From the IMG/VR virus record IMGVR_UViG_3300036793_000098: 20,000 nt of DNA, one strand, 5' to 3'. Shown here in pieces: positions 1-19,936 of the stretch. This DNA is from an uncultured virus (IMG/VR IMGVR_UViG_3300036793_000098) (Duplodnaviria; Heunggongvirae; Uroviricota; Caudoviricetes). Each line of letters starts with the position of its first letter. Positions within the stretch are counted from its first letter, which is position 1. The notes under the pieces were generated by a model. It saw nothing but the letters and a program-made list of their open reading frames with translations, searched no databases and was not told the DNA's origin. The position numbers were made by a program, and so were the translations under genes.

Positions 1-1323
1 GTCGACGAAATACACGTCCTCCCAGCTGTTCCGCGACACCGACCGGGACAGGTCCACCCCGGAGATCTCGATGGACAACCCGCCGCCGGTGTTGCCGCCA
101 CCGGAGCCGGTGACCCCGTTCCCGCCGCCACCGGACCCGGACGAGCCGCCGGTGGTTCCGCCGGTGACGGTGATGTTCGTGTTGTTGATCGAGAACAGGC
201 CCAGCGACACGAGTTCGGCGTTGGAGGCGTTAGTAGCGACCCGCACCTCGAGGTTGGACACGCTCGGCGTGGGGTCGGTGACGTGCAGCCGGGTCAGCGT
301 GACCCGGGTCTGCACGGTCTGCCACACGCTCGTACCCGGCAACAACCGGGCGACGGGCTGGTCGTTGAAGGCCGGCTGCCACGTCAGACCGCCGTCGACG
401 CTGGTCTCCACCGTCACCGTCGAACCCACGGCCGGCGTCGCCTGATCCCAGTGAATCACCGAGTTGGTGATCGGAGACTGCGGGATGGCCAGCGGCGGGC
501 TGATCCGGAACCCGGTCAGCTGGGTGAACACCTGCGGGGCCGCGTCGATCTCGTTGGGCGACGTGCTCATCGTGAAGTGCGTTTGCGTGTTCGGGATGCT
601 GGAGGTCGCTACGACGCCCGCGTCGGTCTCGTTCGGGGACGCGGTCATCGCCACGGTGACGTCGGGGTTTTGGGCGAGGAACAGTGACGTTGCGGCCCAA
701 GTCGCATTACTCGCTGCCGGCGGACTGAAGGGAGCACTAAGAGTGCCACTGGTGCCTGATGATAGAAAGGTTTCGCCCGCCGCGAGTACCGCCGCGAAAC
801 CGGTCGTAAGGTCGCTGCTGTATCCGATCTGAGTCATTCCGGACGCTGGTGACAGGGTCGTGGCAACAGCCGCACCGACTAGCAGCATGGAGAATGTCAC
901 GACCGCACCACCGGCGGTCACCGATACGCTCGGGGCGGGCACCGTAGACGCAGACACGGCGCTTGCGGAGGCACTTGAGGGGGCCCACGTCTGTGCGAGA
1001 TTAGGATTCCGCACCGTGAAGGACAGCATCCCCGCCGCCACTCCTTGACTAAAAGTCAATACACCGTCCACAGAGGAAGGTGTCAGCGTCTGCGTGAAAA
1101 TGGCGATTGTCCAGTTGCCGCCAATGACGGTGGTCTGGTAGCGCTTAGTCCATCCAGGAAATGAGGAGATCGTGGCGACACTGCTGGTGAAGCCAATGAC
1201 GTAGATGACGCGCAGATCATTAGTCTGGAAACTGGAACCGACCGTCAGGGGGTACGTGGCCGACAGAGCATGAAGACCAGTTGCGTCGGATACCGTGTCC
1301 AGGAACAACAGTGGGTACGGCAT
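1..1323 (-). CDS. Minor tail / tail-tip protein, partial (>=441 aa, runs off the left edge). Contains a variable N-terminal beta domain, a beta-sandwich domain and the C-terminal part of a DUF5047-like tail protein
   Basis: Hand translation: ATG at 1323, 3 nt after the upstream TGA, with no stop down to position 1 (MPYPLLFLDTVSD...TGFRISPPLAIP...VETSVDGGLTW...ELVSLGLFSINN...SIEISGVDLSRSVSRNSWEDVYFVD). Missing from the ORF track because it has no stop in the window. Confidence 0.85.
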   Translation of the reverse strand, partial: MPYPLLFLDTVSDATGLHALSATYPLTVGSSFQTNDLRVIYVIGFTSSVATISSFPGWTKRYQTTVIGGNWTIAIFTQTLTPSSVDGVLTFSQGVAAGMLSFTVRNPNLAQTWAPSSASASAVSASTVPAPSVSVTAGGAVVTFSMLLVGAAVATTLSPASGMTQIGYSSDLTTGFAAVLAAGETFLSSGTSGTLSAPFSPPAASNATWAATSLFLAQNPDVTVAMTASPNETDAGVVATSSIPNTQTHFTMSTSPNEIDAAPQVFTQLTGFRISPPLAIPQSPITNSVIHWDQATPAVGSTVTVETSVDGGLTWQPAFNDQPVARLLPGTSVWQTVQTRVTLTRLHVTDPTPSVSNLEVRVATNASNAELVSLGLFSINNTNITVTGGTTGGSSGSGGGGNGVTGSGGGNTGGGLSIEISGVDLSRSVSRNSWEDVYFVD

Positions 1324-2230: not shown

Positions 2231-3829
2231 TCAGGACGTAATCGGCGGAGCGGCCGTACTGGTGTACGAGACGGAAACCTTGTGATAGTTCGGTACGAGC
2301 TCCCAGTCATAACTCATGTCGCTGCCCGCCGCGCCCGGTCCGAACAGCACGTAGAGCTGTTCACCGTTCGGGTACTGCACCAGCAGAATGTGTCCGGACT
2401 GGTCCAGCTGCTTGAACGCTGACCAGTAGTCCGCCGGCTGGTCTTTGTAGAAGTTCAGCGTGTACGTGCCTTCGGGGCCGTACTGCGGACCGTTCACGAC
2501 GATCTTGTCGACCAGTAGCTCACCGGAGATGACTTCGAACGTGCCCTGCACCCGCCGCACCGTGCGCGCGTCGCCCTGATACGCGATCGGGAACGGGGTG
2601 TTCACCGTCGGGTCGAGCACGTCCTTCAACCATGGAACGTCGACCTGCGGGGTGACGGTGACAACGTTCGAGTACCCGGCGGCGGCGAACAGCAACGACC
2701 CGGTCTGCCCATAGGCCAGCACCCGGTACTTCGACGGAATGTTCAGCGGCGCCTCGTAGTCGTACACCGTCATCGTGCCGCCCGTGTTGGTCAGCAGCAG
2801 GGCGTTGCGCACCGGCCCGTAGGTCACACCGTTGTCCTGCGACGACTGGACCGCGTACGCCACCGTGGCCGGCGTGGGGCCGCCGGTGGTGATGTCCAGA
2901 CGAACCCGGTTATAGACACTGTCGAACAGCGAGTTGGAGATCACCGCGTTCGGGGCGCCGGAGATGGATTGGGTCCAGGTGATCGACGCGATCCCGGACG
3001 GGAAGTCGTTCGACCCCGGCCAGGTCTGATTGACCTGCACATAGGCCGAGTAGCCACCGTTAACGATGTCCGTGTTCAACGTCCACTGCAGATCTTCCCC
3101 GAAGGTCAACCCCGAGGTTTGGACCGGTGGGGTGACGAACGGGACGAAGCCACCGGCCGCGACCTGCGCGGCGGTGTAGATGGCCACGTTGTACGCGGCC
3201 TGCGGGTTGCTGTCCGGGGACGTGTAGGTCCAGGTGACCGTCGGCCGACACGTCGTGGTGATCGTCCCGGTGGGGGCGGTGACGGTGATGACCGCCTGCT
3301 GGGTGTAGGTGATATCCACATACACCTCGGAGATCCGCAACGGGTTCCCTGAGACGTCATCGCGCCCGAGATGCACCTCGAACTGGTTGAACGAGGCCAA
3401 CGTCCACGGGTTGCCGTCCGGGTCCGACGTCAAGTTCTCCAGCTGCTGCTCCACCCACACGACCGTGGGTTGTCGTGGGCAGCGCCACCCGAACAGCAAC
3501 AGCAGGATGAAGTCGATGATGACCGTGATGATGTTCGGCGGGCGGTGGCAGCGGAACCAGCCCAAACAGATCGGCTGCGGCGCCGGCCACACCACCGTTT
3601 GGATGCGGATCCGCACCCCGACCGAGCTGATCTGAGCCCCGGTCGGGATGGTGATCGTCGGCAGCCCGAGCCGCAGCCGCTGGGTGTCCAGGCGGCACCG
3701 GGGGGTGAGCTGCACATAGGTGGTGTCGGTGTTGTCGGACAGGGCGGTGTGTGCGTTCGCCGCGCCGACCACCGACCAGGAGCCGAGCTGGACGGTGGAG
3801 TTCGGTCGGACCGTGGTGACCGCGCTCAT
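2231..3829 (-). CDS. Distal tail (Dit)-like minor tail protein with N-terminal beta/FN3-like domains
   Basis: 532 aa, directly after the tape measure gene with ATGA overlap. Thr/Val/Tyr-rich beta composition. YDYEAP and WLKDxxxPxxN motifs are typical of actinophage post-TMP proteins. Confidence 0.75.
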   Translation of the reverse strand: MSAVTTVRPNSTVQLGSWSVVGAANAHTALSDNTDTTYVQLTPRCRLDTQRLRLGLPTITIPTGAQISSVGVRIRIQTVVWPAPQPICLGWFRCHRPPNIITVIIDFILLLLFGWRCPRQPTVVWVEQQLENLTSDPDGNPWTLASFNQFEVHLGRDDVSGNPLRISEVYVDITYTQQAVITVTAPTGTITTTCRPTVTWTYTSPDSNPQAAYNVAIYTAAQVAAGGFVPFVTPPVQTSGLTFGEDLQWTLNTDIVNGGYSAYVQVNQTWPGSNDFPSGIASITWTQSISGAPNAVISNSLFDSVYNRVRLDITTGGPTPATVAYAVQSSQDNGVTYGPVRNALLLTNTGGTMTVYDYEAPLNIPSKYRVLAYGQTGSLLFAAAGYSNVVTVTPQVDVPWLKDVLDPTVNTPFPIAYQGDARTVRRVQGTFEVISGELLVDKIVVNGPQYGPEGTYTLNFYKDQPADYWSAFKQLDQSGHILLVQYPNGEQLYVLFGPGAAGSDMSYDWELVPNYHKVSVSYTSTAAPPITS

Positions 3830-6800
3830 CGCTTCTGCCCCTGCGACACCGAGGTCAGCTTGTCGATGACCCGCTCGATCCTGTGGTCAGTACGAATGTC
3901 GATCTCCCGGCCGTCGATGTAGAGCCGGTGCTCATGCACGCAGTGCTTGCTCTGTCCGCCCTGCTGCGCCTGCCCCGAGGCGATCGAGATCGGCGCGTTC
4001 TGCGGCTGCATCGACGCACCGGAGCCGGCAAGACCGAGCAGGCCCATGCGCCCGAGTGCGGCCGTGGCCTCACCGGTCGCGGCCGAGGCCAGCCCGAGCG
4101 CGGCGGCCTTCACCGTGCCCAAGGACTGGGTGATGCCCTTGGCCAAGTTGATCCCGAACAGCTGACCCACGTTCTGGGCGTCCACCGTCGCGGTCGCGTG
4201 CAGTACCTCGATAACAGTGATCCCGGTGTCATGGGCGGCCTTGCGGCACCAGCGCTCCTCCTCGCGGATGCCGCGCCAGAACCCTTCGCCGAACCAACGC
4301 CCGATCTCGTGCAGCAACCGGGACGGGGACGACGTTTCCAGGGCGGAGTTGACCGCGTCCACCGAGCCCTGCGCCATCGAGGTGGCGGCGGCAGCCACGC
4401 CGGTCTGGGTGCCGACGATGCCGTTGACGAAGCCCTGGTTGAAGTCCTCTCCCACGGCTTCCATGACCTTCGACGGGGACGCCGACCCGATCGCGCCCTG
4501 CGCACCGGCCACCGCGGCGCTACCGACCGACGCACCGGCCGAAGCCGCACCGCCGGTGCCGCCACCGCCTCCGGAAGAGCCGCCGCCGGACAGCCCGGCT
4601 TCCTTCATCAACGAGATCAGCTTCTGCAGGTCTTCGATCAGCTTCTTCACTTCTTCGTCGAGCTTCTTCGCGGCCTTGGCGCCGTCCTCGAACGCCCGCT
4701 CCATGGCCTGGCCGGCTTCCGGGGCGATCTGGGTGATCTCGTCGAAGTCCTGGATGAGCGACGCGACGTCCTGCTCCAGATCCAGCACCGACTGGTCCAC
4801 GTAGATGATCTGCTGCTGCAACTGGTACAGCTGCTCCACCGTGGTGCCCAGGTCGGTTTCCCACTGGTTCGTCACCGCGTCGGCGGCCGCGATCGACTGG
4901 GTGAACTGCTGCACCGAGGAGTTCAGTTGCTGCAGCGTCTGCTGGAACTGCTTGAGCACCTGCAGGCCCTGGGTGACGGCTTGCACGAACTGCTGCATCG
5001 ACTTGACCAGCTGGGTGAACTGCTGCACCGCTTGGCGCAGCTGCGCGACGAACTGGGTGAATGACTTCACGAACGACGTCCACAGCGGGGTCACCGCCTT
5101 GAGCTGGGCGTCGAAGGTGGTGAACGACTTCACGAACGTCGTCCAGGTCGCGTTCGCCGCCTTCACCTGCGCGGTGAATGTCGAGAACGACTTCACGAAC
5201 GCGGTCCACAACGGACCGACGGCCTTGAGCTGCGCGTCGAAGGTGGTGAAGTTCTTCACGAACGTCGCCCAGATCGGCCCCACGGCCTTGATCTGTGCGT
5301 CGAACGTCGTGGTGTCCTTCACGAACGTCGCCCACGGGGCGGTCGCGGCCTTGACCTGCGCGGCGAAGGAGGTGAAGTCCTTCACGAACGTCGCCCACGT
5401 CGGACCGGCGGACTTCAGCTGCGCCCCGAACGTGGTCACGTCCTTGACGAAGGTGGCGAACGGGCCCGCCACCTCCTTGACCGCCGGGCCCAGCTTCTGC
5501 ATGTCCGCGACCACCGGGTCCATCCCGGCCTGCACAGCCTTGAACGCCGGGCCCAGGTTGGTCGCGGCGGTGTTCAGGTCGGTCAGCGGCTGCTTCGCGT
5601 CCGAGGCCTGCTTCGCCAGGGACTGCACATCGGTGCCGACCTGCTTCGTCGGATCCGACAGACCCTCCACGGAGGACTTCGCGTCGTCCAGCGGCGGCTT
5701 GATGTCTTTGACCGAGGAGCCGAGGTCGTCGACCGGCTTCTTCGCCTGGTCGAGCTTGTCGCCGGTGTCCTTCGCGGCGTTACCCAGATCGTTGGTCGGG
5801 GCCACCGCGCCCTTGTTCGCGTCCGCCAAGTCCTTAGCCTTGTCGCCGGTGGCCGCCATCACGACACCCTGGTTCTGCACCGGGGGTGCGGCGTCGTTGC
5901 TGGCCGCGATCAGGTCCCGCTCGGACTGGGTGGTCGTACCGAGGGCCTCGTCCATGTGCGCGATCGCCAGCTTGCACTTGTCGAAGAAGTCGACGACCTT
6001 CGCGCCCAACCCGATCAGATCAGAGATCGCGGTGAACAGACCGGTGACGATGTCGATAACACCCTTGATCACCGAGGTGATCGCCGGCCCGTTCTGGGCG
6101 ATGGAGTCCTTCAGGGCGCTGAACGCGGGCTCGCACTGCTTGATCGCGTTCATGAAATCGGTGCCCAGATCGGTGACGATCTGGATGATGTCCTGGATTT
6201 CCTTGCCGATCTCCCCCGATGCGGACGACACCGACCCGGAGAACTTGTTCATCTGGGCGGTGCTGTCCCCGATCGCCTTCATCACCGCGACACCGAGATT
6301 GGTGAAGGCGTCCATGGCCGGCTTCATCGCCGGCTGCACCTTCTCCGCCATCGACTTGAACGAGTCGCTGAGCCGGCCCACGTCCTGGATCAGTGGGGTG
6401 ATCTCCTTCGACCCGATCGTGATCAACGCGGCGCCCAAATCGCCCAGCTTCCCGATCAACTTCTCGGCAGCCGGCACCGCCGCGTCCCACGCCCCAGACG
6501 CGTTATGGAACGCGGTCGCCATGTGCTCCACGGCCAGAATGCCGGCCTGCATCAGGCCGGGCAGCGCGTTGAAGAACTGCCGGAACTGCGGCGCCAACGT
6601 CTGCGTGATCACGTTGAACCCGTTCGCCAGCTCCTTCAGCGACGCCACGACCTTCGGGATGGCCTGCTGCGCGACGGAGGCGATCGTCCGGAACGCCGCC
6701 TTGAGCGGCTCCGCGATCTGCGGCAACGCCTGGCGCACCGCCTGGATCATCTGCTGCAGCACTTGACCGAACGGCTTCGTGATGTCGGCGAAGTCCTTCT

Positions 6801-7902
6801 TGATCTCGGTCGCCAAGTCCTTGAACTGCTTCTTCACTTCCTTGTTGCCCGACTCGGCCGCGACCACCAACCCGGTGATCGCCGCGCCGGCGGCGAGCAT
6901 CGCTATCCCGAAGCCGGCGAACGCGGCCACCGCCACCACGGCCAGCGCGGCAACAGCCGCGACCAGGGCGGCGGCGGCCACGGCGGCGATCGCGGCGGCG
7001 GCGGCGAACACGCCCATCGCCATCGCGGCCATCGGGATGACCCCGGCCAGTGTCTCCATGGCTGCGGCGAACCCGGACGCGGCGCCCGTCGCCAACCCCT
7101 GCATCGACCCGGTGACGGTGCCGATCACCTGGTCCAGGTTGTTCATCGCGCCGACCACGAGTCCGACACCCTGCTCCACGTCGGTGAAGCCGCCCTCGAT
7201 GACCTGGAACGCGCCGGTGACGTCGTTCAGCGCGGTCTCGAAGGTGATAAAGCCCTGCTCAGCGGCGGTCACCCCTGACTCCAGGGCGGTCATCCCACCC
7301 TCGAGCGCGGTGACCCCTCCCTCCGCTGCCTGTGCGGCGCCCTCGATGGCGGTCAATCCGCCCTCCAGGGCCTGCACGCCGCCCTCCAGGGCGGTAGCGC
7401 CCTGCTCAGCGGTGGTGAGGCCGGACTCAAGGGCCGTGACGCCCTGCTCGGCGGACTGTGCGGCCCCCTCGACGGCGGTAAGGGCGGACGTCATCCCCTG
7501 AGCGTCCGTAGCGAACGTCGCCACTACCTGCTCAGTAGTGGTCACCGCCCCCTCCAGGGCGACAAAGCCCTGCTCGGCCTCTTTGATCTGGCTCGAGTCC
7601 ACGTCGATCTTGATGGTGTCGTTGTCGAGGGCATCCGCCTCGGCCTTCAGCGCCGCGAGCTCCGCCTCGGCCTCCGCTACCCCTGAGGTGTCCACGTCGA
7701 TCTTGATGGTGTCGCCGGCGTCGGTCAGTGCCGCCTTCAGCGCCTCAACCTCGGCGATCGCGTCCGTGACTTGGGAGAAATCGACCTCGATGGCGATCTT
7801 CGAGTCCTTGAAGGACTCGAGGAGTGCCTTGAACTCTTCGACCTGCGCCTTGGCCTCTTCGGCCTCGGCGTTGAACCGGATAGTGAGCTCAGAATCGGCC
7901 AT
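3826..7902 (-). CDS. Tape measure protein (~1358 aa; alternative GTG start at 7911)
   Basis: Longest ORF, located after the chaperone frameshift genes. Helical Ala/Gln-rich repeats, an Ala-rich hydrophobic segment, two SPS(K/R)...G...GF..GI motifs and a C-terminal LYIDGREI. Confidence 0.95.
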   Translation of the reverse strand: MADSELTIRFNAEAEEAKAQVEEFKALLESFKDSKIAIEVDFSQVTDAIAEVEALKAALTDAGDTIKIDVDTSGVAEAEAELAALKAEADALDNDTIKIDVDSSQIKEAEQGFVALEGAVTTTEQVVATFATDAQGMTSALTAVEGAAQSAEQGVTALESGLTTAEQGATALEGGVQALEGGLTAIEGAAQAAEGGVTALEGGMTALESGVTAAEQGFITFETALNDVTGAFQVIEGGFTDVEQGVGLVVGAMNNLDQVIGTVTGSMQGLATGAASGFAAAMETLAGVIPMAAMAMGVFAAAAAIAAVAAAALVAAVAALAVVAVAAFAGFGIAMLAAGAAITGLVVAAESGNKEVKKQFKDLATEIKKDFADITKPFGQVLQQMIQAVRQALPQIAEPLKAAFRTIASVAQQAIPKVVASLKELANGFNVITQTLAPQFRQFFNALPGLMQAGILAVEHMATAFHNASGAWDAAVPAAEKLIGKLGDLGAALITIGSKEITPLIQDVGRLSDSFKSMAEKVQPAMKPAMDAFTNLGVAVMKAIGDSTAQMNKFSGSVSSASGEIGKEIQDIIQIVTDLGTDFMNAIKQCEPAFSALKDSIAQNGPAITSVIKGVIDIVTGLFTAISDLIGLGAKVVDFFDKCKLAIAHMDEALGTTTQSERDLIAASNDAAPPVQNQGVVMAATGDKAKDLADANKGAVAPTNDLGNAAKDTGDKLDQAKKPVDDLGSSVKDIKPPLDDAKSSVEGLSDPTKQVGTDVQSLAKQASDAKQPLTDLNTAATNLGPAFKAVQAGMDPVVADMQKLGPAVKEVAGPFATFVKDVTTFGAQLKSAGPTWATFVKDFTSFAAQVKAATAPWATFVKDTTTFDAQIKAVGPIWATFVKNFTTFDAQLKAVGPLWTAFVKSFSTFTAQVKAANATWTTFVKSFTTFDAQLKAVTPLWTSFVKSFTQFVAQLRQAVQQFTQLVKSMQQFVQAVTQGLQVLKQFQQTLQQLNSSVQQFTQSIAAADAVTNQWETDLGTTVEQLYQLQQQIIYVDQSVLDLEQDVASLIQDFDEITQIAPEAGQAMERAFEDGAKAAKKLDEEVKKLIEDLQKLISLMKEAGLSGGGSSGGGGGTGGAASAGASVGSAAVAGAQGAIGSASPSKVMEAVGEDFNQGFVNGIVGTQTGVAAAATSMAQGSVDAVNSALETSSPSRLLHEIGRWFGEGFWRGIREEERWCRKAAHDTGITVIEVLHATATVDAQNVGQLFGINLAKGITQSLGTVKAAALGLASAATGEATAALGRMGLLGLAGSGASMQPQNAPISIASGQAQQGGQSKHCVHEHRLYIDGREIDIRTDHRIERVIDKLTSVSQGQKR
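5040..5465 (-). repeat. Seven tandem 63-nt (21-aa) coding repeats in the tape measure gene
   Basis: TT(C/G)ACGAA recurs at 5066, 5129, 5192, 5255, 5318, 5381 and 5444, an exact 63-nt period. Protein unit is approximately WxxFVKxFTTFxAQLKAxxPx. Confidence 0.95.
7170..7590 (-). repeat. Degenerate 7/14-aa repeats (AEQGxTALEGG) in the tape measure N-terminal region
   Basis: Translation shows AEQGFVALEG, AEQGVTALESG, AEQGATALEGG, AEGGVTALEGG and AEQGFITFE. Confidence 0.85.
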
Positions 7903-8574
7903 CGAACCCACGCCCCCTATCCGGTTGTCCGTACTTCAGCTCGAACTGGTCCAACTCCAGGTCACCCGGGTCTTCCGCGCCCTGAGCGAACTGGGCGCCC
8001 CGCAAACTGGCGAAGGCTTGACGCGCGTCGTCGCGTTCCTGGCCGAACGGGCCCCGGATCGCCATCCACGCGTCCCACTCCGCCAAATCCGTGGCGGTAC
8101 CGCAGGCCCTCAGGAATGCGCGGCGGGAGGCGAACTTGAGATGGGCCGCGAGGTCGAGCTGGCGGAGGATGTCCGGGCGGCTCCGGATTTTCCCTCAAGC
8201 GCCTTCTTCGAGTCCTTCGTCATGTGCGACAACTTCCGGGCCAGATCCGCGATCCGCTCACACCCGGCCGAACCGAGCGAGTTCACCACCGCGATACCGC
8301 GACCGGTGTCCGGCCAAATGCGGGCACCGGATGCCTGCCGGGCCGCGAACACGACCAGGCGGGAAGTGTTGTTCGACATGTTCAGCTCGTAGTCGGAGCC
8401 ATCAATCTCGAACATCGGTGCCCGGTACTCGTCCATCTCCGCGGCGGTCAGCTCCTGCACCCACACCGAGCACTTCCACTCGGGAACGTCGATGCGCTGG
8501 CGGGCGGCCTCCCACTTGATGCCGCCGGAGTCGACCAGCTCGGGGAACTCGAAGTCGTCGTCAAACTCGCTCAT
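7889..8574 (-). CDS. Tail assembly chaperone, long (gpGT-like) form made by programmed -1 frameshift
   Basis: The -1 frame is open from the slippery site to the stop at 7889 (KIRSRPDILRQLDLAAHL...LAEWDAWMAIRGPFGQERDDAR...). It has a TGA just upstream of the slip site, and includes track ORF 7889..8086. Confidence 0.85.
8110..8574 (-). CDS. Tail assembly chaperone, short (gpG-like) form
   Basis: The motif VPEWxxxVWVxELTAAExDxY is typical of tail chaperones. AGGAG lies 8 nt upstream of ATG 8574 (the track start is 8607). Confidence 0.85.
   Translation of the reverse strand: MSEFDDDFEFPELVDSGGIKWEAARQRIDVPEWKCSVWVQELTAAEMDEYRAPMFEIDGSDYELNMSNNTSRLVVFAARQASGARIWPDTGRGIAVVNSLGSAGCERIADLARKLSHMTKDSKKALEGKSGAARTSSASSTSRPISSSPPAAHS
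8188..8194 (-). other. Programmed -1 ribosomal frameshift slippery site G GGA AAA
   Basis: The plus strand reads ttttccc at 8188-8194. This is an XXXYYYZ heptamer in the correct phase (GAG GGA AAA, E-G-K), the canonical actinophage chaperone slip site. Confidence 0.9.
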
Positions 8575-8622
8575 TCTCATGTCTCCTGTTTTGTGATGCA
8601 CGAACAACCCCCAACGTGAGGG

Positions 8623-9051
8623 TCAGATTTCGATCGCGGCGCTAACCGCTTCCTCAGTCGCCGCGACGGCGGGTCCACGGCCGGCCTCGAACCCCACCGC
8701 GACGTAATGGGTGGCGGGCACGTGCACGTGGTGGGCGAAGATGGTGCGTGCGTCGATCTGGAACACCATCAGCGGGTTGCCGTAGTTGTCCCCGCCGGAG
8801 TTCTGGATGTTGTTGTAAACCGTGTTACCAGTGATCATCCAGCCTTCGCCGTCATCGTGTTTGTCGATGGAATCCCGCAACCGACCGGTTTTCACTGGGG
8901 CCGCGTCCTTCATCGACTGCACGAACGCATCCGCGCCGGGCGAGAGCACTTCGGTGAGGCCGGGGGGCTCGAGGACGTACTCGACACGCTTCAACATGTC
9001 CTGCACGTCGCCGAGCCCGTCCCACTCCGCCTCAATGCGGATTTCCGCCAC
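8623..9051 (-). CDS. HK97 gp10-like tail completion / neck protein
   Basis: Contains the motif APVKTGRLRDSI; 142 aa; start overlaps the major tail gene stop. Confidence 0.8.
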   Translation of the reverse strand: MAEIRIEAEWDGLGDVQDMLKRVEYVLEPPGLTEVLSPGADAFVQSMKDAAPVKTGRLRDSIDKHDDGEGWMITGNTVYNNIQNSGGDNYGNPLMVFQIDARTIFAHHVHVPATHYVAVGFEAGRGPAVAATEEAVSAAIEI

Positions 9052-9809
9052 TAGCTGTAGACAACGCCGCGCGCGAAACCGACCAGGGCCAGGAACGACG
9101 GGGTGGTACCCGAGATCGTCCAGTTGGCCCGCACCTGCGCCGGGATCGTCTGCTGCTTGGGCAGCACGATCCGCTGCGCCGACGCCGTGGTCGCCGCGGT
9201 GAACGCCATCCCAGGGATGTCGGTCCAGGTGGTGCCGTCCGGGGAGCCCTGGAACTTCAGCGTCATCGACGGAGTGGTGCCCGTGACAGAGAAGACGTGC
9301 AGCTGCGCGTTCGCGCCGGCGACGGTCGCCCCACCGTTCGGGGTGTTGTCCAACGCCGCGGACATGCCGGTCGTGGTGGTGAACGCGTTCGGGGACAGCA
9401 GGATGTAGCCGTCATCGACGTAACCACGGGCCATCATGGTGCAGTCGATGGTGACCGCACCCTTCAGCTTCGCGTCGATGTCGTACTTGGTGATGACCGA
9501 CGGCTGCATGACCATCGGGCCACCCAGGGGCCACCCGAGGGCGCCGTAGGCGGCGAGCACGTCGGAGTCCTGACCGAACCGCTGGTTCACGATCCCGTCG
9601 ATGTTGTTGTACCCGGGGGTGTAGAAGCCCTTGAGTTCGATCGAAGCCTTCTGGATACCGGCCAGGTCGTAGGAGAACCGGTCACCGAACACCGTCGCGT
9701 CGATCGTCGCGGCGTCCCGCTTGGCCTTCAGCTCGTTACCGTTACCGGACATGTCGTACTGGTCAAACGCGACCGCGACATTCCGGCCGACATACACCTG
9801 AGCGGTCAT
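9051..9809 (-). CDS. Major tail (tube) protein with C-terminal beta-sandwich extension
   Basis: The N-terminal ~135 aa has the tube-like pattern IDATVFG...LAGIQKASIELKGFY. The C-terminal domain has GSPDGTTW and VRANWTISGTTPS. Located upstream of the chaperone and TMP genes. Confidence 0.8.
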   Translation of the reverse strand: MTAQVYVGRNVAVAFDQYDMSGNGNELKAKRDAATIDATVFGDRFSYDLAGIQKASIELKGFYTPGYNNIDGIVNQRFGQDSDVLAAYGALGWPLGGPMVMQPSVITKYDIDAKLKGAVTIDCTMMARGYVDDGYILLSPNAFTTTTGMSAALDNTPNGGATVAGANAQLHVFSVTGTTPSMTLKFQGSPDGTTWTDIPGMAFTAATTASAQRIVLPKQQTIPAQVRANWTISGTTPSFLALVGFARGVVYS

Positions 9810-11175: not shown

Positions 11176-11535
11176 CTAGACGAGTTCCCCACCGGTCACC
11201 GAGAACGTCAGCGACGGAGTGGTGCCCGCGATCGTCCAGGTCAGCCGGACGAACCGGTCCAGCCCGGCGAACGACTTACGCTCGCTGGACACACCGGTCT
11301 TCTGCGCGAACGAGCCGACCGTGTACCAGGTGGAGTTATCCGCACTGGTCTCCAGCTTCAGGTCCAGCGTCGGTGAACCAGACACGGCGGTGACGTTCAG
11401 GAACAGGCTGCGCAGCCCGCTCCGGGCACCGACCTCAACGGCCGGGGCCGACGCGGTAGTGGTCCGGGCGGCGGACGCGACGGCCGGGAACAACTCGGTG
11501 TGGACGTACGTTCCGTCCGTCTTCTGGTAGGGCAC
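11176..11535 (-). CDS. Small beta-sandwich virion protein (possible capsid cement/decoration protein)
   Basis: AGGAG RBS and GTG start. LETSADNSTW...RFVRLTWTIAGTTPS is paralogous to the major tail C-terminal domain. Confidence 0.65.
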   Translation of the reverse strand: MPYQKTDGTYVHTELFPAVASAARTTTASAPAVEVGARSGLRSLFLNVTAVSGSPTLDLKLETSADNSTWYTVGSFAQKTGVSSERKSFAGLDRFVRLTWTIAGTTPSLTFSVTGGELV

Positions 11536-14584: not shown

Positions 14585-15832
14585 TTATCCATCAGACGGG
14601 CCGAGCGACGAACCGCCGAGTACTTTGTCGGAGCCCATCGGGGCATTGACCGCGTTCGGGTTGATCGGCTGCAGGTACACCTGGCCGGCACCGTTGGGCA
14701 GCGGCGGCAGATCTTCCAGGTCGCGGATCTCATCGACGTTGTAAGCGCCCATCTCCCGCATCACCCGGTAGTACTCAGCCCGGGCGATCGAGTCACCGCG
14801 CAGCAGGCTGTCGATGTCGTAACGGGCCTTCTGGCCGGCCGGGAGCAGCTCCTTGGTGATCCGCTGCTCGGCCGGGGCCAACCACGTCGGGTGCAGATCG
14901 AACTGGTTGAACCCACGGGCCTGCTGCTCAAGGCCACTACCCCACGAAGTGGTCTTGTCGGTCTGGTACATCAGGTACGGCGGGATACCGAAGAACCGGG
15001 CGAGCTCCGTGATCTGAAAGTCGCGGGACTCGAGCATCTGCGCGTCGTCGTTGGGCATGACCAGGGACTGGAACTTTGCCCCCGAGTCCAACACCGCTAC
15101 CCGGTGCGCCCCGTCGATGCCGGAAAACTTCTCCGCCCACCGGGCCTGCAACGTTTCGGCCTGAGCCTGGTCCAGTTCAGCATCGGTCTGCAGCAACCCG
15201 GACAGCAGGTTCCCGGAACGGAACAGTCTCGCGGCGGTCGCTTCCGCCGCCTGCGCCATCCCGATCGCCTGCGCGGCCATCCGCACCGGCGACACCCCGA
15301 TGAGCCCGTCATAACCCAGACCGGGCACGTGGAAGATCTCGTTGGGGGTCATCGGGGTCACCGTGCCGTGCTCGTCGGTGACCTTGAAAACCTTCCCGCT
15401 GGGGTTCTGTGGGATCGACTTTGCCTTGCCCACCTGCACCCGGTTCGGCAGCAGCGGGTTCAGCCAGGCGACCTGACCGCCGCGCTTGTACACCTTCTGC
15501 GAGTAGGCGTTGCCCCACAGGCAGCGGTGCACCGCGTTCAGCCGCCAGAACTCCAGCGGAGTGAGCTCCGGGTGCGGGTCGTCGAGGATGGTGCCCTCAA
15601 CCGGCTTCTTCGTGGCGATGTCCACCGCCATCAACGGCAGCGAACCGGCCAGTCCGGACACCAGCGACGTCGCCCGGTACACCGCCGACATGTTCATGGC
15701 CGTGTACTCAGTGACCGGCACACCGGAATCGGTGGGTTGACCGCCGAACAGGCCCAGAAGTGACAGGTTGGTCAGCGGAACGGCCGGGTTTTCGATGTTC
15801 GCCCGACGCTCTTTGATTTTGAAGAGGCTCAC
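14585..15832 (-). CDS. Portal protein, HK97 family
   Basis: AVYRA..L.SG...SLPL, LWGNAY, EIFHV.G.G.DGL.G.SP, DAQMLESRDFQI.E.ARFFGIPP and LLRGD...R..YY motifs. Confidence 0.97.
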   Translation of the reverse strand: MSLFKIKERRANIENPAVPLTNLSLLGLFGGQPTDSGVPVTEYTAMNMSAVYRATSLVSGLAGSLPLMAVDIATKKPVEGTILDDPHPELTPLEFWRLNAVHRCLWGNAYSQKVYKRGGQVAWLNPLLPNRVQVGKAKSIPQNPSGKVFKVTDEHGTVTPMTPNEIFHVPGLGYDGLIGVSPVRMAAQAIGMAQAAEATAARLFRSGNLLSGLLQTDAELDQAQAETLQARWAEKFSGIDGAHRVAVLDSGAKFQSLVMPNDDAQMLESRDFQITELARFFGIPPYLMYQTDKTTSWGSGLEQQARGFNQFDLHPTWLAPAEQRITKELLPAGQKARYDIDSLLRGDSIARAEYYRVMREMGAYNVDEIRDLEDLPPLPNGAGQVYLQPINPNAVNAPMGSDKVLGGSSLGPSDG

Positions 15833-15990
15833 CGGCGCGACGCTGCTTCAGCCATCGCCCAGCGCTCGCAGGACACCACAACCGCCAGTCCGGCCACCAG
15901 GAACGCCGCCGGCACGTAAATCAGGGCGCAACCGGCCACGAACAGGCACAATCCGACGATTTCGACGGTCAAAAGGAGCCACTGAGGCAT
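15829..15990 (-). CDS. Small two-TM membrane protein (53 aa) between terL and portal
   Basis: GAAAGGAG RBS before ATG 15990; MPQWLLLTVEIVGLCLFVAGCALIYVPAAFLVAGLAVVV; GTGA overlap with the portal start. This is the 3' part of track ORF 15829..16377. Confidence 0.8.
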   Translation of the reverse strand: MPQWLLLTVEIVGLCLFVAGCALIYVPAAFLVAGLAVVVSCERWAMAEAASRR

Positions 15991-16004
15991 GATTCGGGCT
16001 CCTT

Positions 16005-17597
16005 TCACCACAAGTTGGGTACTTTCCGCTTGGCCAGGGAGCCGTGTTCGATGGCCCAACCGCGGGCTTCGTAGGCCAGCAAGGCCGCCATGAACGCCGA
16101 AATGGACTGTGCGTGGCTCTTTTTGACGATCCGCTGGTAGTGCTCCGGCTGCCCGGGGACGCGTTCCTCGGACGTTGAGCGCCGTTTTCCGTTGGCCAGA
16201 GCGGCCCCAGCGGCGTGCATGGTGAGGATTTCCGTGCCGTCGTGGGTCAGTTCGTCGCCCCGATGGGCCGTTTGGAACCGTTCCACGAGCTGATCCATGC
16301 GCAGCTCGGAGTTGGTCCACAGTTCGTAGACCTTTTTCGGGTATTGACCGTCCCAGGTGTTGACCTCGGTCTGCCATCCGGTCGGCGTGCAGAACATGGC
16401 CTCGACTTCGTAGGCTTTGAACGCATCTCGTACCGCTTGGTGGACTTCATCGCGCGGAACCTGCCACTCGGGCTCCCCCGGGGCTCGTTCCCACGTCCTG
16501 AGGTGGTAAATGCGGCCGTCAGACAGCCGTGAGGCGCACAAACTGGTCGCGTCCCGGTTCTGGGACCCGTGGAAGCCCAAAGCGACCTGCTGACGCTTCT
16601 GAAGCGGCTCCGAAGAGTCCCGCTGGGCCGTCCACTTGATCATGTCGACGGCGTCACGCGAGCCGACCGTGACCTCGTTGAGATAGAACCGGCGAGACTC
16701 GCCCTCACCAGTGCTCGGGTCACGGATCTCGTCCATGATCCGCTCTAGACGGACCCATCCGCCGTTCTCGATGGCCGAATCGCCGTACACATGGAGCAGT
16801 TCGGCCCGCAGCGCCTGGTCATCGTCCAAGTCGACGCGCACTCGAGGCTGCCGATAGTCCAGGAACACGCCCGGAGCCTTGGCTTCCCAGGTCATCTGAG
16901 CTACTGAGCGCTCCGATGGGTCGTAGGCGTTGGTGAGCTCCATCCATCGGCCATCCATGCCGGCCAGGCCGCGCTTCATGGTGCGCGCCAGGTTCAGGCC
17001 GCCGCTGGATTCGGTGTAGAGGCCGGACTCAGTGAAGGTGGCGAAGGTGATCCGGGCGCCCAGTCGGCTCTTCGCGGCCGCCGTGACCGGCTCGATACGG
17101 CCACCGTCGGGCAAATTAACCCTGGTCAGGCCCACATCGAGGCCCGGGGTGTTCGCGGCCGGCCCCTCGGACAGCATCGTGAAGATCGGGCGGAACGTGT
17201 TGTCCACCTGATCTTCAGAGTTGGCGGCGCACTGGATCCAGGGCGTTGACATCGGGGCGCCGACAGGCTCCCCGCTCGCGTCCCAGCCGGCGAAGCGCAC
17301 CGGTCCGAGCGCTTGAGCACACGCCTGTGCGGCGGCAAGTGGATCTTTTCCGCTCTTCTGTGGTCGCACCAGAAGCGCGCCGTAGTAGACGAACGCTTGG
17401 CTGCCCATCTCCGGGCGTGCGTTCGGCTTGAGCTGGTACGACTTCATCAGGTGCCACTGCTGCTCAGACGTGAGCAGGAACGGCTCGCCCCGGCGGGGGC
17501 CATCCGGGACGATCAGATTCGCTTCGATCCAGTCGATCACCGTGAAGCCCAGCGTCGGGAAGGCACCCGGGCCGCCGTCTCCCCCGTTCCAAGGCAT
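16005..17597 (-). CDS. terL: Terminase large subunit (ATPase plus apparently degenerate nuclease domain)
   Basis: TLG..VIDWIE, PF.LT.EQ, Walker A RPQKSGKD, AANSEDQ, LTNA coupling motif and RRFYLN; located upstream of the portal. Confidence 0.93.
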   Translation of the reverse strand: MPWNGGDGGPGAFPTLGFTVIDWIEANLIVPDGPRRGEPFLLTSEQQWHLMKSYQLKPNARPEMGSQAFVYYGALLVRPQKSGKDPLAAAQACAQALGPVRFAGWDASGEPVGAPMSTPWIQCAANSEDQVDNTFRPIFTMLSEGPAANTPGLDVGLTRVNLPDGGRIEPVTAAAKSRLGARITFATFTESGLYTESSGGLNLARTMKRGLAGMDGRWMELTNAYDPSERSVAQMTWEAKAPGVFLDYRQPRVRVDLDDDQALRAELLHVYGDSAIENGGWVRLERIMDEIRDPSTGEGESRRFYLNEVTVGSRDAVDMIKWTAQRDSSEPLQKRQQVALGFHGSQNRDATSLCASRLSDGRIYHLRTWERAPGEPEWQVPRDEVHQAVRDAFKAYEVEAMFCTPTGWQTEVNTWDGQYPKKVYELWTNSELRMDQLVERFQTAHRGDELTHDGTEILTMHAAGAALANGKRRSTSEERVPGQPEHYQRIVKKSHAQSISAFMAALLAYEARGWAIEHGSLAKRKVPNLW

Positions 17598-17752
17598 TAC
17601 GCCTCCTCGGGGGCCGGCTTAGATCGCAGCTCGCGGGGCACGTCCTGACGGTCTTTCCATACCCGCAACTCGCGGAGCCTGCGAACGTCGGAAACGGAGC
17701 GCACACCCCGTCTGAGCAGCGCGAAATATTCCTCGCGCTCCGCTCGGGCCAT
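17597..17752 (-). CDS. Hypothetical 51-aa basic protein, possibly similar to the portal C-terminal motif
   Basis: ATG lies 2 nt after the upstream TGA and its TAA overlaps the terL ATG (TAATG), so it is coupled at both ends. Confidence 0.6.
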   Translation of the reverse strand: MARAEREEYFALLRRGVRSVSDVRRLRELRVWKDRQDVPRELRSKPAPEEA

Positions 17753-17754
17753 GG

Positions 17755-18054
17755 TCAGTTCGTGGTCGGGGTGTAGAGCTGGCCGGACATCTTGGCGTTC
17801 GGGACAACCTGCCACACGCCGTTGTTGAACCCGATCCAGTCGCCCGGGTTGATCGAGTACACGTCGTTGTTCCAGATGAACAGCGCGGTGTTGGGAGCAG
17901 CGGTGGTGGCAAGCAACTGGTTGGTGCCGCCGAGCACCGCCGACCAGTCCGTATTAAACGTGGTCGAGAACTGCGCGACGGTAACGCCGGTCGACGCGTA
18001 CTGGGTGAACTTGTAGATCGGCGTGTTGGCCGCGAGGAAATCAGAGGTAGCCAC
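17755..18054 (-). CDS. Hypothetical protein (99 aa, Thr/Asn-rich, PGDWI motif)
   Basis: AGGAG RBS, GTG start, strong GC3 codon bias. Confidence 0.8.
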   Translation of the reverse strand: MATSDFLAANTPIYKFTQYASTGVTVAQFSTTFNTDWSAVLGGTNQLLATTAAPNTALFIWNNDVYSINPGDWIGFNNGVWQVVPNAKMSGQLYTPTTN

Positions 18055-18062
18055 AACAACTC

Positions 18063-18329
18063 CTACGGGACGGGGAACGGGGCGGGCGGATCGGTCAGGT
18101 CACGCACACGCTGAACGGTGATCGGCTCCCCGTCGCGGACCCCGTCCTCCAGCCACACGATCTGGTTCTGCGCTCCGTGGGCGCGACGCTCGATCCAGTG
18201 CGTCAGCAGCACCTCGGACGGGTCGATGCCGTGCTGGGTGAACCAGCCCTGCCACAACGTGACGTGGTCCGGGCTGTCGTGCTGGACGTCCTCGCGGAAC
18301 CAGTCCCGGACGTTGTAGGCGGGAGGCAT
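18063..18329 (-). CDS. Hypothetical protein (88 aa, W...HGIDP..V motif)
   Basis: TGATG-coupled to the upstream gene; strong GC3 bias. Confidence 0.75.
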   Translation of the reverse strand: MPPAYNVRDWFREDVQHDSPDHVTLWQGWFTQHGIDPSEVLLTHWIERRAHGAQNQIVWLEDGVRDGEPITVQRVRDLTDPPAPFPVP

Positions 18330-18715
18330 CAGCTGTCACCCATGAAGGTCCGGAGTTCCTTGCCGTCCAGGTACAAGTAGTGCTCGCACTCCAGCTGCTC
18401 TAGCTCAGCTTCCGCCGCGGCAACACCAGTAGTGTCGACGTAGACCTTGATCGGCTCGTCACTCTCGCCGGACTGACAGGCCGCCTTCAGTGCCTCAACC
18501 TCAGCGATCGCGTCCACAACCTGAGAAAAGTCCACCTCAATGGTCATCTTCGAGTCCTTCAGCGCCCCCAAGAGCGCCTGGAACTCCTCGACCTCAAGGA
18601 TCTCGGGAGTCAGACCGCGGTCTAGCCGGGCGACTGCGCCGAACAGGCGTTCTGCGTTAGCCGGAGAGTGGAGCAGATGGCGGGTCTCGCGCCACGACCG
18701 GAACCAGCGGAACAT
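18329..18715 (-). CDS. Chimeric protein: YefM-antitoxin-like C-terminal helix fused to tape-measure-derived segments (128 aa)
   Basis: TGATG-coupled at both ends. aa 7-34 resemble the YefM C-terminus, and the remainder aligns to the N- and C-termini of the TMP in this window. Confidence 0.8.
   Translation of the reverse strand: MFRWFRSWRETRHLLHSPANAERLFGAVARLDRGLTPEILEVEEFQALLGALKDSKMTIEVDFSQVVDAIAEVEALKAACQSGESDEPIKVYVDTTGVAAAEAELEQLECEHYLYLDGKELRTFMGDS
18481..18594. repeat. Diverged direct repeat of tape measure segment 7731..7844
   Basis: Ungapped hand alignment gives 91/114 nt identical at an offset of 10750 nt, and 31/38 aa identical. Confidence 0.95.
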
Positions 18716-19146
18716 CAGGCGGCTCCGTCCGGGTCCACTGCCTTCAGGCGGAGCCGTGAGACGGGGGCCATCTGTACGTCCGGCATCTCGTCGTCCGCGA
18801 TCTCCCAGTCCAGCGACTTCATGGCGCGTGGGTTGCGGCCGAGGCGGTCCTCGAGCTGTCGCAGCTCGGCATGCATCTGCGCCGAGGCGACAGTGGCCTT
18901 GTGCTCGTAGCGCAGCGCGACAGCCACGTCCACGTAGCGCGCGATGATGTCCTCAATGTGCATACGCACCCAGACCTTGGCCTGTGGAGTGCGCCAGAGC
19001 TTCTGCCACAAGATCTCGTGGAACTCAGTCGCCGCTTCGCCGAACGACCACTCGGGGATCGGGCCGTCGTAGCCGTCCAGCGGGAGCTTCGGCGTCGGGA
19101 GGTTCCGGCGCAGGCGCTGGCCCTCCGGTTTACGTGGTGCTGGCAT
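18715..19146 (-). CDS. terS: Terminase small subunit (actinophage type)
   Basis: GGAGG RBS before ATG 19146. The pattern P.P.....RRN...LP..G..GP.P.W...W..LWRTPQA..W...ELRQLEDRLG..P..M..L.WEI is typical of actinophage TerS. Confidence 0.85.
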   Translation of the reverse strand: MPAPRKPEGQRLRRNLPTPKLPLDGYDGPIPEWSFGEAATEFHEILWQKLWRTPQAKVWVRMHIEDIIARYVDVAVALRYEHKATVASAQMHAELRQLEDRLGRNPRAMKSLDWEIADDEMPDVQMAPVSRLRLKAVDPDGAA

Positions 19147-19936
19147 GTGCCACCTCCCTGGCATTCCTGGCTAGAGCCAGGTAGTCCGCGGCCTTTAGCA
19201 AACGCGTGACGTCATCCCTGAAAAATCCAAGACCTACATTGCAGGACTTGCATAGAAGTCCACGAATGCAGCTCCCGCAAGACGCAGCCGCCGCGCAACA
19301 CGAATGATCGTGGTCTACGTGGTACCCCTCAGCTAGATCGTCGCCACACGCGGCGCACGAACCGTCCTGAGCCGCCAGTAAGGCGTCTAACTCCTCGCGG
19401 GTCGTACTGTGCTGGGACGCAACGACGCAAACCCGGCACATGTGCATCAACCCATCCCGGGAAGCAACATTCCTGCCGAATTCCGCCTCCGGAGCCCACC
19501 TCGCGCACCTATGGCACTGTTTGTTGCCGCCCTCATCGCGCGCCAAGGAGGGGCGCGGGCGCACTACAGGGCCCCGACGCAGCCGATTAGCGCGATCTTG
19601 ATTCCTGCTCTTCCGGTTCGTACAGGGGCGGCACGTGTTCATTAGTCCATCGAGCCTGGCGGCGTCACTGCCAAAGGAGTCCTCTGCGAACCAGAGGCGG
19701 CATAATGTGCACCGCTTGTTGCCGTTCTCATCGCGCTGCGCACCCCCGGTGCGGGGCTGGTTCTTCCCGGCAAGCCAGTTCCGCTCACGCTGTCTCTGAG
19801 CGATGCAAGGGCGGCACTTCCTCGCTAGCCCATCGGGCTTACGAGCATCACGCCCGAATACGGCCTCTGGACGCCACCGGAGACAGCTCGCGCATCGCCT
19901 CAGGTCATTCGCGCTTAGTTCCAGGGAATGCGCCAT
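19130..19936 (-). CDS. Endonuclease VII-domain (His-Me finger) protein with three N-terminal CxxC...CxxC zinc-ribbon repeats
   Basis: C-terminal Q.G.CAAC...HVDHDH.CC....CG.CIRGLLC..CN.GLG.F.DD...L..A..YL; GGAGG RBS; more A/T-ending codons than neighbouring genes. Confidence 0.9.
   Translation of the reverse strand: MAHSLELSANDLRRCASCLRWRPEAVFGRDARKPDGLARKCRPCIAQRQRERNWLAGKNQPRTGGAQRDENGNKRCTLCRLWFAEDSFGSDAARLDGLMNTCRPCTNRKSRNQDRANRLRRGPVVRPRPSLARDEGGNKQCHRCARWAPEAEFGRNVASRDGLMHMCRVCVVASQHSTTREELDALLAAQDGSCAACGDDLAEGYHVDHDHSCCAAAASCGSCIRGLLCKSCNVGLGFFRDDVTRLLKAADYLALARNAREVAHASTT

Follow-up and report, generated by a model that had tools for sequence, protein, structure and literature searches.

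A small gene in the late region of an uncultured soil siphophage encodes a protein that is built in large part from the two ends of the phage's own tape measure protein (TMP). The phage (IMG/VR record IMGVR_UViG_3300036793_000098, Caudoviricetes) is represented by a stretch of 20,000 nt, the window of this study, which consists of a late-gene block of 65% GC with every gene on the minus strand (Table 1). We refer to the small gene as the mini gene and to its product, P0001, as the mini protein. With 128 amino acids as compared to the 1361 of the TMP, and with ~1240 residues of the middle gone, the mini protein does not have the length of a long ruler. The gene is located between a gene resembling the small terminase gene (terS) and the large terminase gene (terL), not between the chaperone and distal tail genes, and lies 10.75 kb from the parent TMP gene, as stated in the first-pass annotation. 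That annotation had set the start of the gene at 18600, which cuts off codons 1-38; the true open reading frame (ORF) occupies 18329..18715, and the lost part holds an antitoxin-like arm. The ATG of the mini gene overlaps the upstream stop codon by 1 nt and its stop codon overlaps the next ATG by 1 nt, both junctions reading TGATG, and GGAG is present ~9 nt upstream of the mini ATG. GC content at third codon positions (GC3) is 0.775 in the mini frame versus 0.85-0.92 in neighboring genes. Codon-position GC between 17600 and 19160 indicated genes on the minus strand only, and no opposite-strand partner gene was seen there. A promoter scan with a sigma-70 consensus, which may not apply here, returned no promoter-like site. 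The mini gene most likely encodes a real, non-essential accessory protein composed of three captured pieces, which would be a toxin-binding arm of YefM type (residues ~5-45), a pair of strand-helix units taken from the TMP N terminus and a hairpin that is predicted to precede the terminal helix of the TMP.

Table 1. Position of the mini gene, its parts and other features in the window
Feature	Coordinates	Strand	Remarks
Endonuclease VII/HNH gene	19130..19936	(-)	First in transcription order
Small-terminase-like gene, 149 aa	18715..19164	(-)	Directly upstream of the mini gene; stop overlaps mini ATG
Mini gene, 128 aa (P0001)	18329..18715, stop codon included	(-)	ORF list and translation; 8 family variants
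YefM/RelJ-like toxin-neutralizing arm (putative), mini residues 5-35	18611..18703	(-)	RelJ alignment reaches residue 50
Mini residues 41-106, pair of strand-helix units copied from the TMP N terminus	18398..18595	(-)	BLASTP and nucleotide identity
Mini residues 110-124, CEHYLYLDGKELRTF, hairpin motif from near the TMP C terminus	18344..18388	(-)	Window match and relatives
Downstream gene, 88 aa	18063..18329	(-)	ATG overlaps mini stop; no Pfam, PHROG or NCBIfam match
99-aa gene	17755..18054	(-)	GC3 0.89; divergent 95-aa counterpart in G002; no family match
Large terminase gene	16005..17597	(-)	PHROG 19179, E 1.2e-66; bounds the variable slot on its other side
Portal, protease, major capsid protein, connectors		(-)	After the large terminase in transcription order
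Major tail protein gene	9051..9809	(-)	
Tail assembly chaperone gene	8110..8607	(-)	Before the TMP gene in transcription order
TMP gene, 1361 aa (P0002)	3826..7911	(-)	PHROG TMP families, best E 4.5e-32
TMP residues 23-86, counterpart of the mini core	7654..7845	(-)	
TMP motif CVHEHRLYIDGREI	3901..3942	(-)	Followed by ~25 residues absent from the mini protein
Two large distal tail genes		(-)	After TMP in transcription order, at 2231..3829 and 1..1323

The core of the mini protein is a copy of the TMP N terminus. In a BLASTP comparison, residues 41-98 aligned with TMP residues 23-78 at 38/58 identities (66%; E 1e-18), and the nucleotide sequences of the two genes were identical at 92/117 positions over codons 41-79 and at 40/57 over codons 88-106. 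Earlier counts of 31/38, 13/17 and 7/11 matching amino acids were reproduced. [quoted passage not shown] An AlphaFold2 model of the mini protein, which is of low confidence (predicted local distance difference test, pLDDT, 51.9), positions helices at residues 42-52, 66-81 and 98-105 and strands at 89-93 and, within the hairpin motif, at 112-116 and 119-124.

Inside the window the C-terminal motif is a weak match (7/11 amino acids, 22/33 nt; E 0.016 in a single comparison), and its homology is solid because of matches in relatives. Residues 63-87 of a second family member, P0004, align with residues 1340-1364 of a related 1377-aa TMP at 14/25 identities (E 3e-8), and residues 18-60 of P0004 align with residues 27-70 of the same TMP at 33/44 (E 9e-15). 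A profile of the mini family matches the TMP C terminus in all five relatives in which the 3' end of the TMP gene is covered (G003, 7.5e-5; G007, 4.0e-5; G006, 2.1e-4; G002, 0.0096; G005, 0.042). A pattern for the motif, derived post hoc, identified only the mini and TMP sites in the six-frame translation of the window and none in 2000 shuffles. The nucleotides of the mini motif are nearer to the TMP gene of a relative (28/33) than to that of the same phage. Although described earlier as the extreme C terminus of the TMP, the motif is followed in the TMP by ~25 further residues that the mini protein lacks. In six aligned TMP C termini, an invariant H-C...E-H...D-G-E cluster is followed by ~25 conserved residues, and an AlphaFold2 model of the C-terminal 110 amino acids of the TMP (pLDDT 50.8), of which we used the secondary structure alone, places a hairpin at positions 75-90 and a terminal helix at 92-108. 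The mini protein thus keeps the hairpin without the predicted terminal helix and does not have a complete C-terminal anchor. The last ~33 TMP residues of phages JBD30, T5 and 80alpha are described as forming a coiled coil by which they are anchored in the core of the baseplate (PMC11445458). The earlier statement that both engaging ends of the TMP are kept therefore holds only in part, as the predicted terminal helix, which would have this anchoring role, is missing.

Several observations on the TMP itself stand beside these results. Its N terminus (residues 1-115; 7560..7911, minus strand) consists of at least four strand-helix units of ~25-30 residues (x-I-x-I-x-V-D followed by a helix), and distant TMPs of 1.8 kaa carry many copies of this unit, which is also present in P0005 and P0006. 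The C-terminal hairpin of the TMP resembles one more unit of the N-terminal type. TMP residues ~800-960 (4300..5100, minus strand) comprise ~8 tandem copies of a different unit of ~19 residues, W-A/T-T-F-V-K-x-F-T-T-F-x-A-Q-L-K-A. Just before the hairpin, residues ~1323-1337 (3901..3945, minus strand) include a His-Cys...Glu-His cluster that is invariant in six TMPs, and most mini proteins retain its Cys, Glu and His as well. By likeness to JBD30, in which an ion is held by TMP methionines, this cluster may form a metal site on the axis of the TMP trimer. A resemblance between the "EHRLY" strand of the TMP and mini protein and a "DEHRLIY" strand of YoeB looks like chance (best E of YoeB against the window, 0.56).

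The mini gene evolves under protein-level constraint. Compared with the TMP gene of the same phage over 58 codons, the proportions of nonsynonymous and synonymous sites that differ (pN and pS) are 0.12 and 0.63. On the mini branch, three-point estimates of pN/pS over these 58 codons are 0.22-0.30, as compared to 0-0.16 between pairs of TMPs, all from a small sample. Judged by these ratios, which are well below neutrality, the mini gene is under purifying selection. About half of the nucleotide differences had been called synonymous; the selection at the protein level stands, and the figure was understated (26/42 codon-path differences). In a comparison with four TMPs the mini protein is the outgroup, with 31 of 39 amino acids shared with the TMP of the same phage and 30, 32 and 30 with those of three relatives. 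The answer to whether mini proteins follow the TMP of their own phage is thus negative in this case: the mini protein is equidistant from all four TMPs, which argues against co-evolution with its own.

The gene is present sporadically. It is absent from all three near-complete relatives in which the genes are ordered alike (G002 at 68.7 kb, which has terminal repeats; G006 at 68.4 kb; G005 contig 361 at 69.4 kb), the tail genes of which are 59-96% identical to those of this phage. In G002 the genes flanking the mini gene are kept at 50% and 89% identity (88.6% for the 88-aa downstream gene), and the slot itself (L014, 7742..8020) is filled by an unrelated ORF of 92 amino acids that has a weak match to phrog_16729, of unknown function, and no similarity to the mini protein. 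This replacement indicates that the interval between terS and terL is a swap site for small accessory genes. As to the authenticity of the locus, a sequencing run from a different sample and study contains 90% of the sampled 31-mers of 17600-19300, which makes an assembly artefact unlikely, in agreement with the first-pass annotation; none of the contigs listed for that run spans the mini gene, so that its support consists of the 31-mer share. No RNA run was listed among the public runs matching 17600-19300.

Members of the mini family are rare: we identified eight sequence variants of the mini protein of 82-130 amino acids in five clusters at 90% identity, using word-index and exhaustive searches, and the gene is thus not unique to this assembly. 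Except for P0001, the variants were all recovered on short contigs (1.1-2.5 kb). The reading frame is intact in the eight variants, with 34 invariant columns. Common to all eight are one strand-helix unit, the motif of the hairpin (H-x-L-x-L-D-G-x-E-L) and a terminal F-x-x-D; the F-x-x-D end is absent from TMPs, and together these shared elements point to a single origin of the family. A second strand-helix unit is present in four variants and part of the terminal helix in two. The antitoxin helix occurs in two variants (P0001 and P0009), and in the others a deletion falls between two SET repeats. The N termini of P0004 and P0011 align with the very N terminus of TMPs, suggesting that the family started from a simple TMP copy with an internal deletion. 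An exhaustive search of representatives at E <= 1e-3 retrieved only P0001, P0004 and four long TMPs, and a word-index search for longer forms found none, which is weak evidence. PHROG gave no match for P0001 or P0004; for P0009 the sole match was to phrog_10078, a family of unknown function, and involved the antitoxin arm (E 7.3e-5). No Pfam family scored above its cut-off with the mini protein, and a collection of cultured phages contained no DNA or protein match. Profile scanning of viral contigs returned three loci, all of them TMP N termini, and a pattern scan of viral sequences for the C-terminal motif returned five matches, namely three TMP C termini and two unrelated ones. In metagenomes, none of 412 pattern-matching stretches from a profile scan was confirmed and none of 32 matches from a pattern scan was related. 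A genome scan gave a single locus, a TMP in a Nocardioides metagenome-assembled genome (MAG). In a protein atlas no match reached 0.9, and TM scores stayed below 0.5 throughout.

The arm at the N terminus of P0001 resembles the C-terminal, toxin-neutralizing region of Phd/YefM antitoxins (PF02604), and the N-terminal dimerization and DNA-binding domain of these proteins is absent. Residues 5-50 align with residues 43-88 of Mycobacterium tuberculosis RelJ (E 0.0012 in a PDB search), and all eight PDB matches at E <= 10 are antitoxins of the YefM family. P0009 matches residues 51-83 of Escherichia coli YefM (E 7.7e-5). The NCBIfam YefM model matches P0001 over positions 45-75 of 83 (E 8e-4; score 19.5 versus a cut-off of 121), and PF02604 matches over positions 45-73 of 74 (E 0.046; 13.9 bits versus a cut-off of 29.8). 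The C-terminal domain of Staphylococcus aureus YefM (residues 41-81) is reported to wrap YoeB and to block its catalytic core (PMC7544224). A contig of a related phage was binned in a Nocardioides MAG. A YefM from the bacterial family of this MAG matches the window solely at 18614-18703 (E 3.2e-7); its YoeB partner matches nothing (best E 0.56), and no N-terminal YefM domain is present in the window. Five records of related phages, two of them complete, contain neither YoeB nor YefM's N-terminal domain. Judged from the sequence, the arm is thus an orphan, with no cognate toxin gene adjacent to it. Among 201 sampled genomes of the family of the MAG, 27 encode a YefM with this motif (E <= 0.001; one of the 27, G029, is flagged as unpublished), and a YoeB gene lies directly downstream of YefM in 10 of the 10 loci inspected, one of them in the genome flagged as unpublished. 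One such pair (L067, 1357..1877) reaches the Pfam cut-offs (YefM, E 2.5e-23; YoeB, E 8.4e-38).

We predicted the complex of mini residues 1-60 (alignment A3) with a Nocardioidaceae YoeB (alignment A4, 7 rows) alongside three controls. The median ipSAE was 0.67 (0.67, 0.71 and 0.67 in the individual runs), and the best of the three controls reached 0.00. The runs shared at least 92% of contacts, with a partner pLDDT of at least 66. In calibration of such predictions, the mark was passed for 116 of 157 complexes of solved structure, as compared to 2 of 215 mismatched pairs. The predicted interface comprises mini residues 6-45 and YoeB residues 1-10, 46-52, 65, 67, 69, 76-79 and 82-86, which we take to include positions equivalent to the catalytic residues of E. 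coli YoeB.

We favor the interpretation, at a probability of roughly 40%, that the mini protein is a counter-defence mimic that is expressed late and acts in the cytoplasm. Late expression would follow from translational coupling to the small-terminase-like gene. The arm, according to the predicted binding, would sequester YoeB-type mRNase toxins that are freed from host YefM-YoeB modules at infection. The body would display the two most conserved surfaces of the TMP and, as a decoy, would take the place of the TMP for factors that bind it, for example Tab-like assembly blockers, while remaining outside the tail. The mini protein is not a working ruler, since it has neither a hydrophobic middle nor a terminal helix; the TMP of phage TP901-1 is reported to require its N-terminal 154 amino acids, its C-terminal 60 amino acids and a hydrophobic region (PMC5099701). 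Orphan antitoxins are known as phage counter-defences (PMC11825919), and TMP has been reported as a trigger sensed by an Avs family (bioRxiv 10.64898/2026.01.04.697583). Both the decoy idea and the idea of a tag for an N-terminal peptide, which the first-pass annotation had put forward, gain from the finding that this peptide is the antitoxin-like arm.

A number of points weigh against this interpretation. The arm is missing from six of the eight variants and cannot explain the family as a whole, and the genomic slot is known for P0001 alone. The YefM matches of P0001 are partial and under the family cut-offs. The pass in complex prediction shows likeness to solved YefM-YoeB complexes and may reflect model memory, so that the arm may or may not bind YoeB; the YoeB used is a stand-in. 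The pLDDT values of both structure models are low. To our knowledge, no TMP-binding defence has been described in this host group, and where the TMP-binding factor is a sensor such as Avs, a decoy would set it off instead of blocking it. The strong conservation of the core between mini proteins and TMPs agrees with a conserved phage partner no less than with a host target. The upstream gene is only weakly identified as terS (Pfam Terminase_7, E 1.1e-4, below cut-off; PHROG 226, E 2.7e-15, labelled minor tail protein; no match in an NCBIfam search). Finally, the parallel to Tab is positional only, since mini protein and Tab/anti-Tab are not similar and neither of the latter is TMP-like. Tab is described as targeting the C-terminal part of the TMP, and in phage JBD26 the anti-Tab gene is found between terS and terL, directly after terS, which it overlaps by 1 bp (PMC10884400). 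The mini gene occupies the same position (TGATG at 18715, from the terS-like gene to terL). BLASTP of the mini protein against the two JBD26 proteins of this system, gp30 and gp31, gave E 6.3 and 0.12, thus no similarity, and neither JBD26 protein was similar to the TMP of JBD26. Unlike in Tab/anti-Tab, no opposite-strand blocker gene with its own promoter was seen beside the mini gene.

The near-TMP conservation of the core keeps alive the readings of a tail passenger, a poison of tail assembly and an assembly helper. We consider it unlikely that the mini protein is a passenger of the tail, loaded by its TMP-derived ends into the lumen or tip beside the TMP trimer so that its variable N-terminal peptide would be ejected into the next host. 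This would account for the retention of pieces of both TMP ends and for a core nearly as conserved as that of the TMP (30-32/39 amino acids), as fits a shared phage partner. A late gene is expected of a virion protein, the N-terminal region is the variable part across the eight variants, like cargo on a constant tag, and the arm is predicted to bind YoeB. Yet the predicted terminal helix is missing, whereas in solved tails it is the last ~33 residues that make up the anchored coiled coil (PMC11445458). Few copies per virion could hardly titrate the toxin pool of a cell, six of eight variants are without the antitoxin helix, P0004 carries a TMP-like N terminus and no cargo, and three of three close relatives manage without the gene. 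No lumen passenger in siphophages is known to us, no search for one having been made, which also counts against this proposal. Tags for injected proteins include the capsid targeting sequence of T4 internal proteins and the lumen cargo signals of contractile injection systems. These have in common with the passenger reading the combination of a constant structural tag and a variable effector; they load into the head or into contractile-system tubes, and we know of no tail-lumen tag derived from a TMP. Still less likely, in our view, is the extended proposal that the mini family is a tail-borne cargo system, ejected first, the pre-made arm of which would disarm YoeB abortive-infection toxins before phage gene expression. 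Improbable, too, is the suggestion that the mini protein is a dominant-negative weapon, capping or poisoning tail assembly of related co-infecting or resident phages through TMP-end sites. It does mimic the conserved TMP surfaces of the whole clade, its C-terminal motif is nearer to the TMP of a relative than to its own (28/33 versus 22/33 nt), and inhibition of tail assembly is a known strategy with precedents (PMC10884400, PMC11364771). This suggestion, already made in the first-pass annotation, has lost ground because the gene is co-transcribed with the tail genes of its own phage and its product is equally similar to its own TMP, so that it would poison its own assembly. An immunity partner is not evident, and no separate promoter-like site was found with the sigma-70 consensus, which may not apply.

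Two further readings we judge to be quite improbable, to about the same degree. One is that the mini protein is purely an anti-toxin factor, in which the TMP-derived body serves as an oligomerizing or stabilizing scaffold that replaces the dimerization domain of YefM. The arm is the sole piece with a predicted partner, and strand-helix units could oligomerize according to the low-confidence model; against this, six of eight variants have no arm and the TMP-derived core is nonetheless invariant, and a scaffold would leave the retained C-terminal hairpin unexplained. The other is that of a helper in assembly of the phage's own tail, for example one that keeps the TMP-end binding sites of initiator or neck occupied before the TMP is in place. 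A late gene with strongly conserved TMP-like surfaces would be expected in this case, but the gene is located in the packaging module, not in the tail module, and is missing from all three near-complete relatives, in which tail genes are 59-96% identical. Very unlikely, finally, and the least probable of the explanations considered, is that the gene is recombination debris, a neutral or untranslated internally deleted TMP copy. Its GC3 of 0.775, below the 0.85-0.92 of its neighbors, is in line with this, whereas the intact frame in eight variants from five clusters with 34 invariant columns, the mini-branch pN/pS of 0.22-0.30, and the translational coupling at both junctions with GGAG before the start codon all speak against it.

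The mini protein can be compared with several known systems. It shares N-terminal strand-helix units and a C-terminal hairpin with siphophage TMPs, including internal-deletion mutants such as those of TP901-1 (PMC5099701), and its architecture resembles an extreme in-frame TMP deletion. Unlike a TMP, it is encoded by a separate gene in the packaging module, 10.75 kb away, carries a foreign N terminus, is dispensable in close relatives, and is without a hydrophobic or chaperone-binding middle and without a terminal helix. Deletions in lambda gpH are further examples of engineered TMPs with internal deletions. With Phd/YefM proteins (E. coli YefM, 2A6Q; M. tuberculosis RelJ, 3OEI) the mini protein shares the toxin-neutralizing C-terminal domain, with which residues 5-50 align, and in the predicted complex the arm wraps around YoeB in the manner of solved YefM complexes. 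It differs in the location of the arm at the N terminus rather than the C terminus and in having neither a dimerization/DNA-binding domain nor an adjacent toxin gene. Like the orphan antitoxins and mimics of phages (DarG-like; PMC11825919, PMC11481870), it is a module of antitoxin origin that is carried by a phage with no cognate toxin. DarG-like proteins, in contrast, are whole antitoxin-like enzymes or mimics, and the mini protein has a putative binding arm for the YoeB class grafted onto a body derived from a virion protein. Orphan antitoxins being a known theme (PMC11825919), the graft represents a new variation on it.

Theft of whole antitoxins by phages is known, as are attacks on phages through their TMP. 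Recycling of the ends of a phage's own TMP, with a toxin-binding arm added in some variants, would constitute a new way to build a counter-defence or competition protein from virion parts. In a loose search of the literature, which does not establish absence from print, we found no description of a small protein derived from a TMP. The mini protein offers a testable handle on two questions: which partners are bound by the conserved N-terminal repeats and pre-terminal hairpin in TMPs of actinophages, and whether, in Nocardioides-like hosts, phages are opposed by YoeB-type modules. Were it to travel in the tail, it would carry the first tail-lumen cargo tag in a siphophage known to us.

Regarding the genes around the mini gene, a 146-aa ORF at 17619..18059 (minus strand) is the longest in its interval but is in the wrong frame (GC3 0.46; GC content at second codon positions 0.83), and the real gene is the 99-aa ORF listed in Table 1. 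A 182-aa ORF at 15829..16377 (minus strand) shares ~370 nt with the 3' end of the large terminase gene, read in a different frame, and has 69% identity to its counterpart in G002. The real start codon of this ORF probably lies downstream of the stop codon of the terminase gene. Elsewhere in the block, a 119-aa gene at 11176..11535 (minus strand) matches the C-terminal part (positions 138-236) of the major tail protein family PHROG 9522, to which the gene at 9051..9809 also belongs, and it is thus a second fragment of a structural gene that is kept as a separate small gene.

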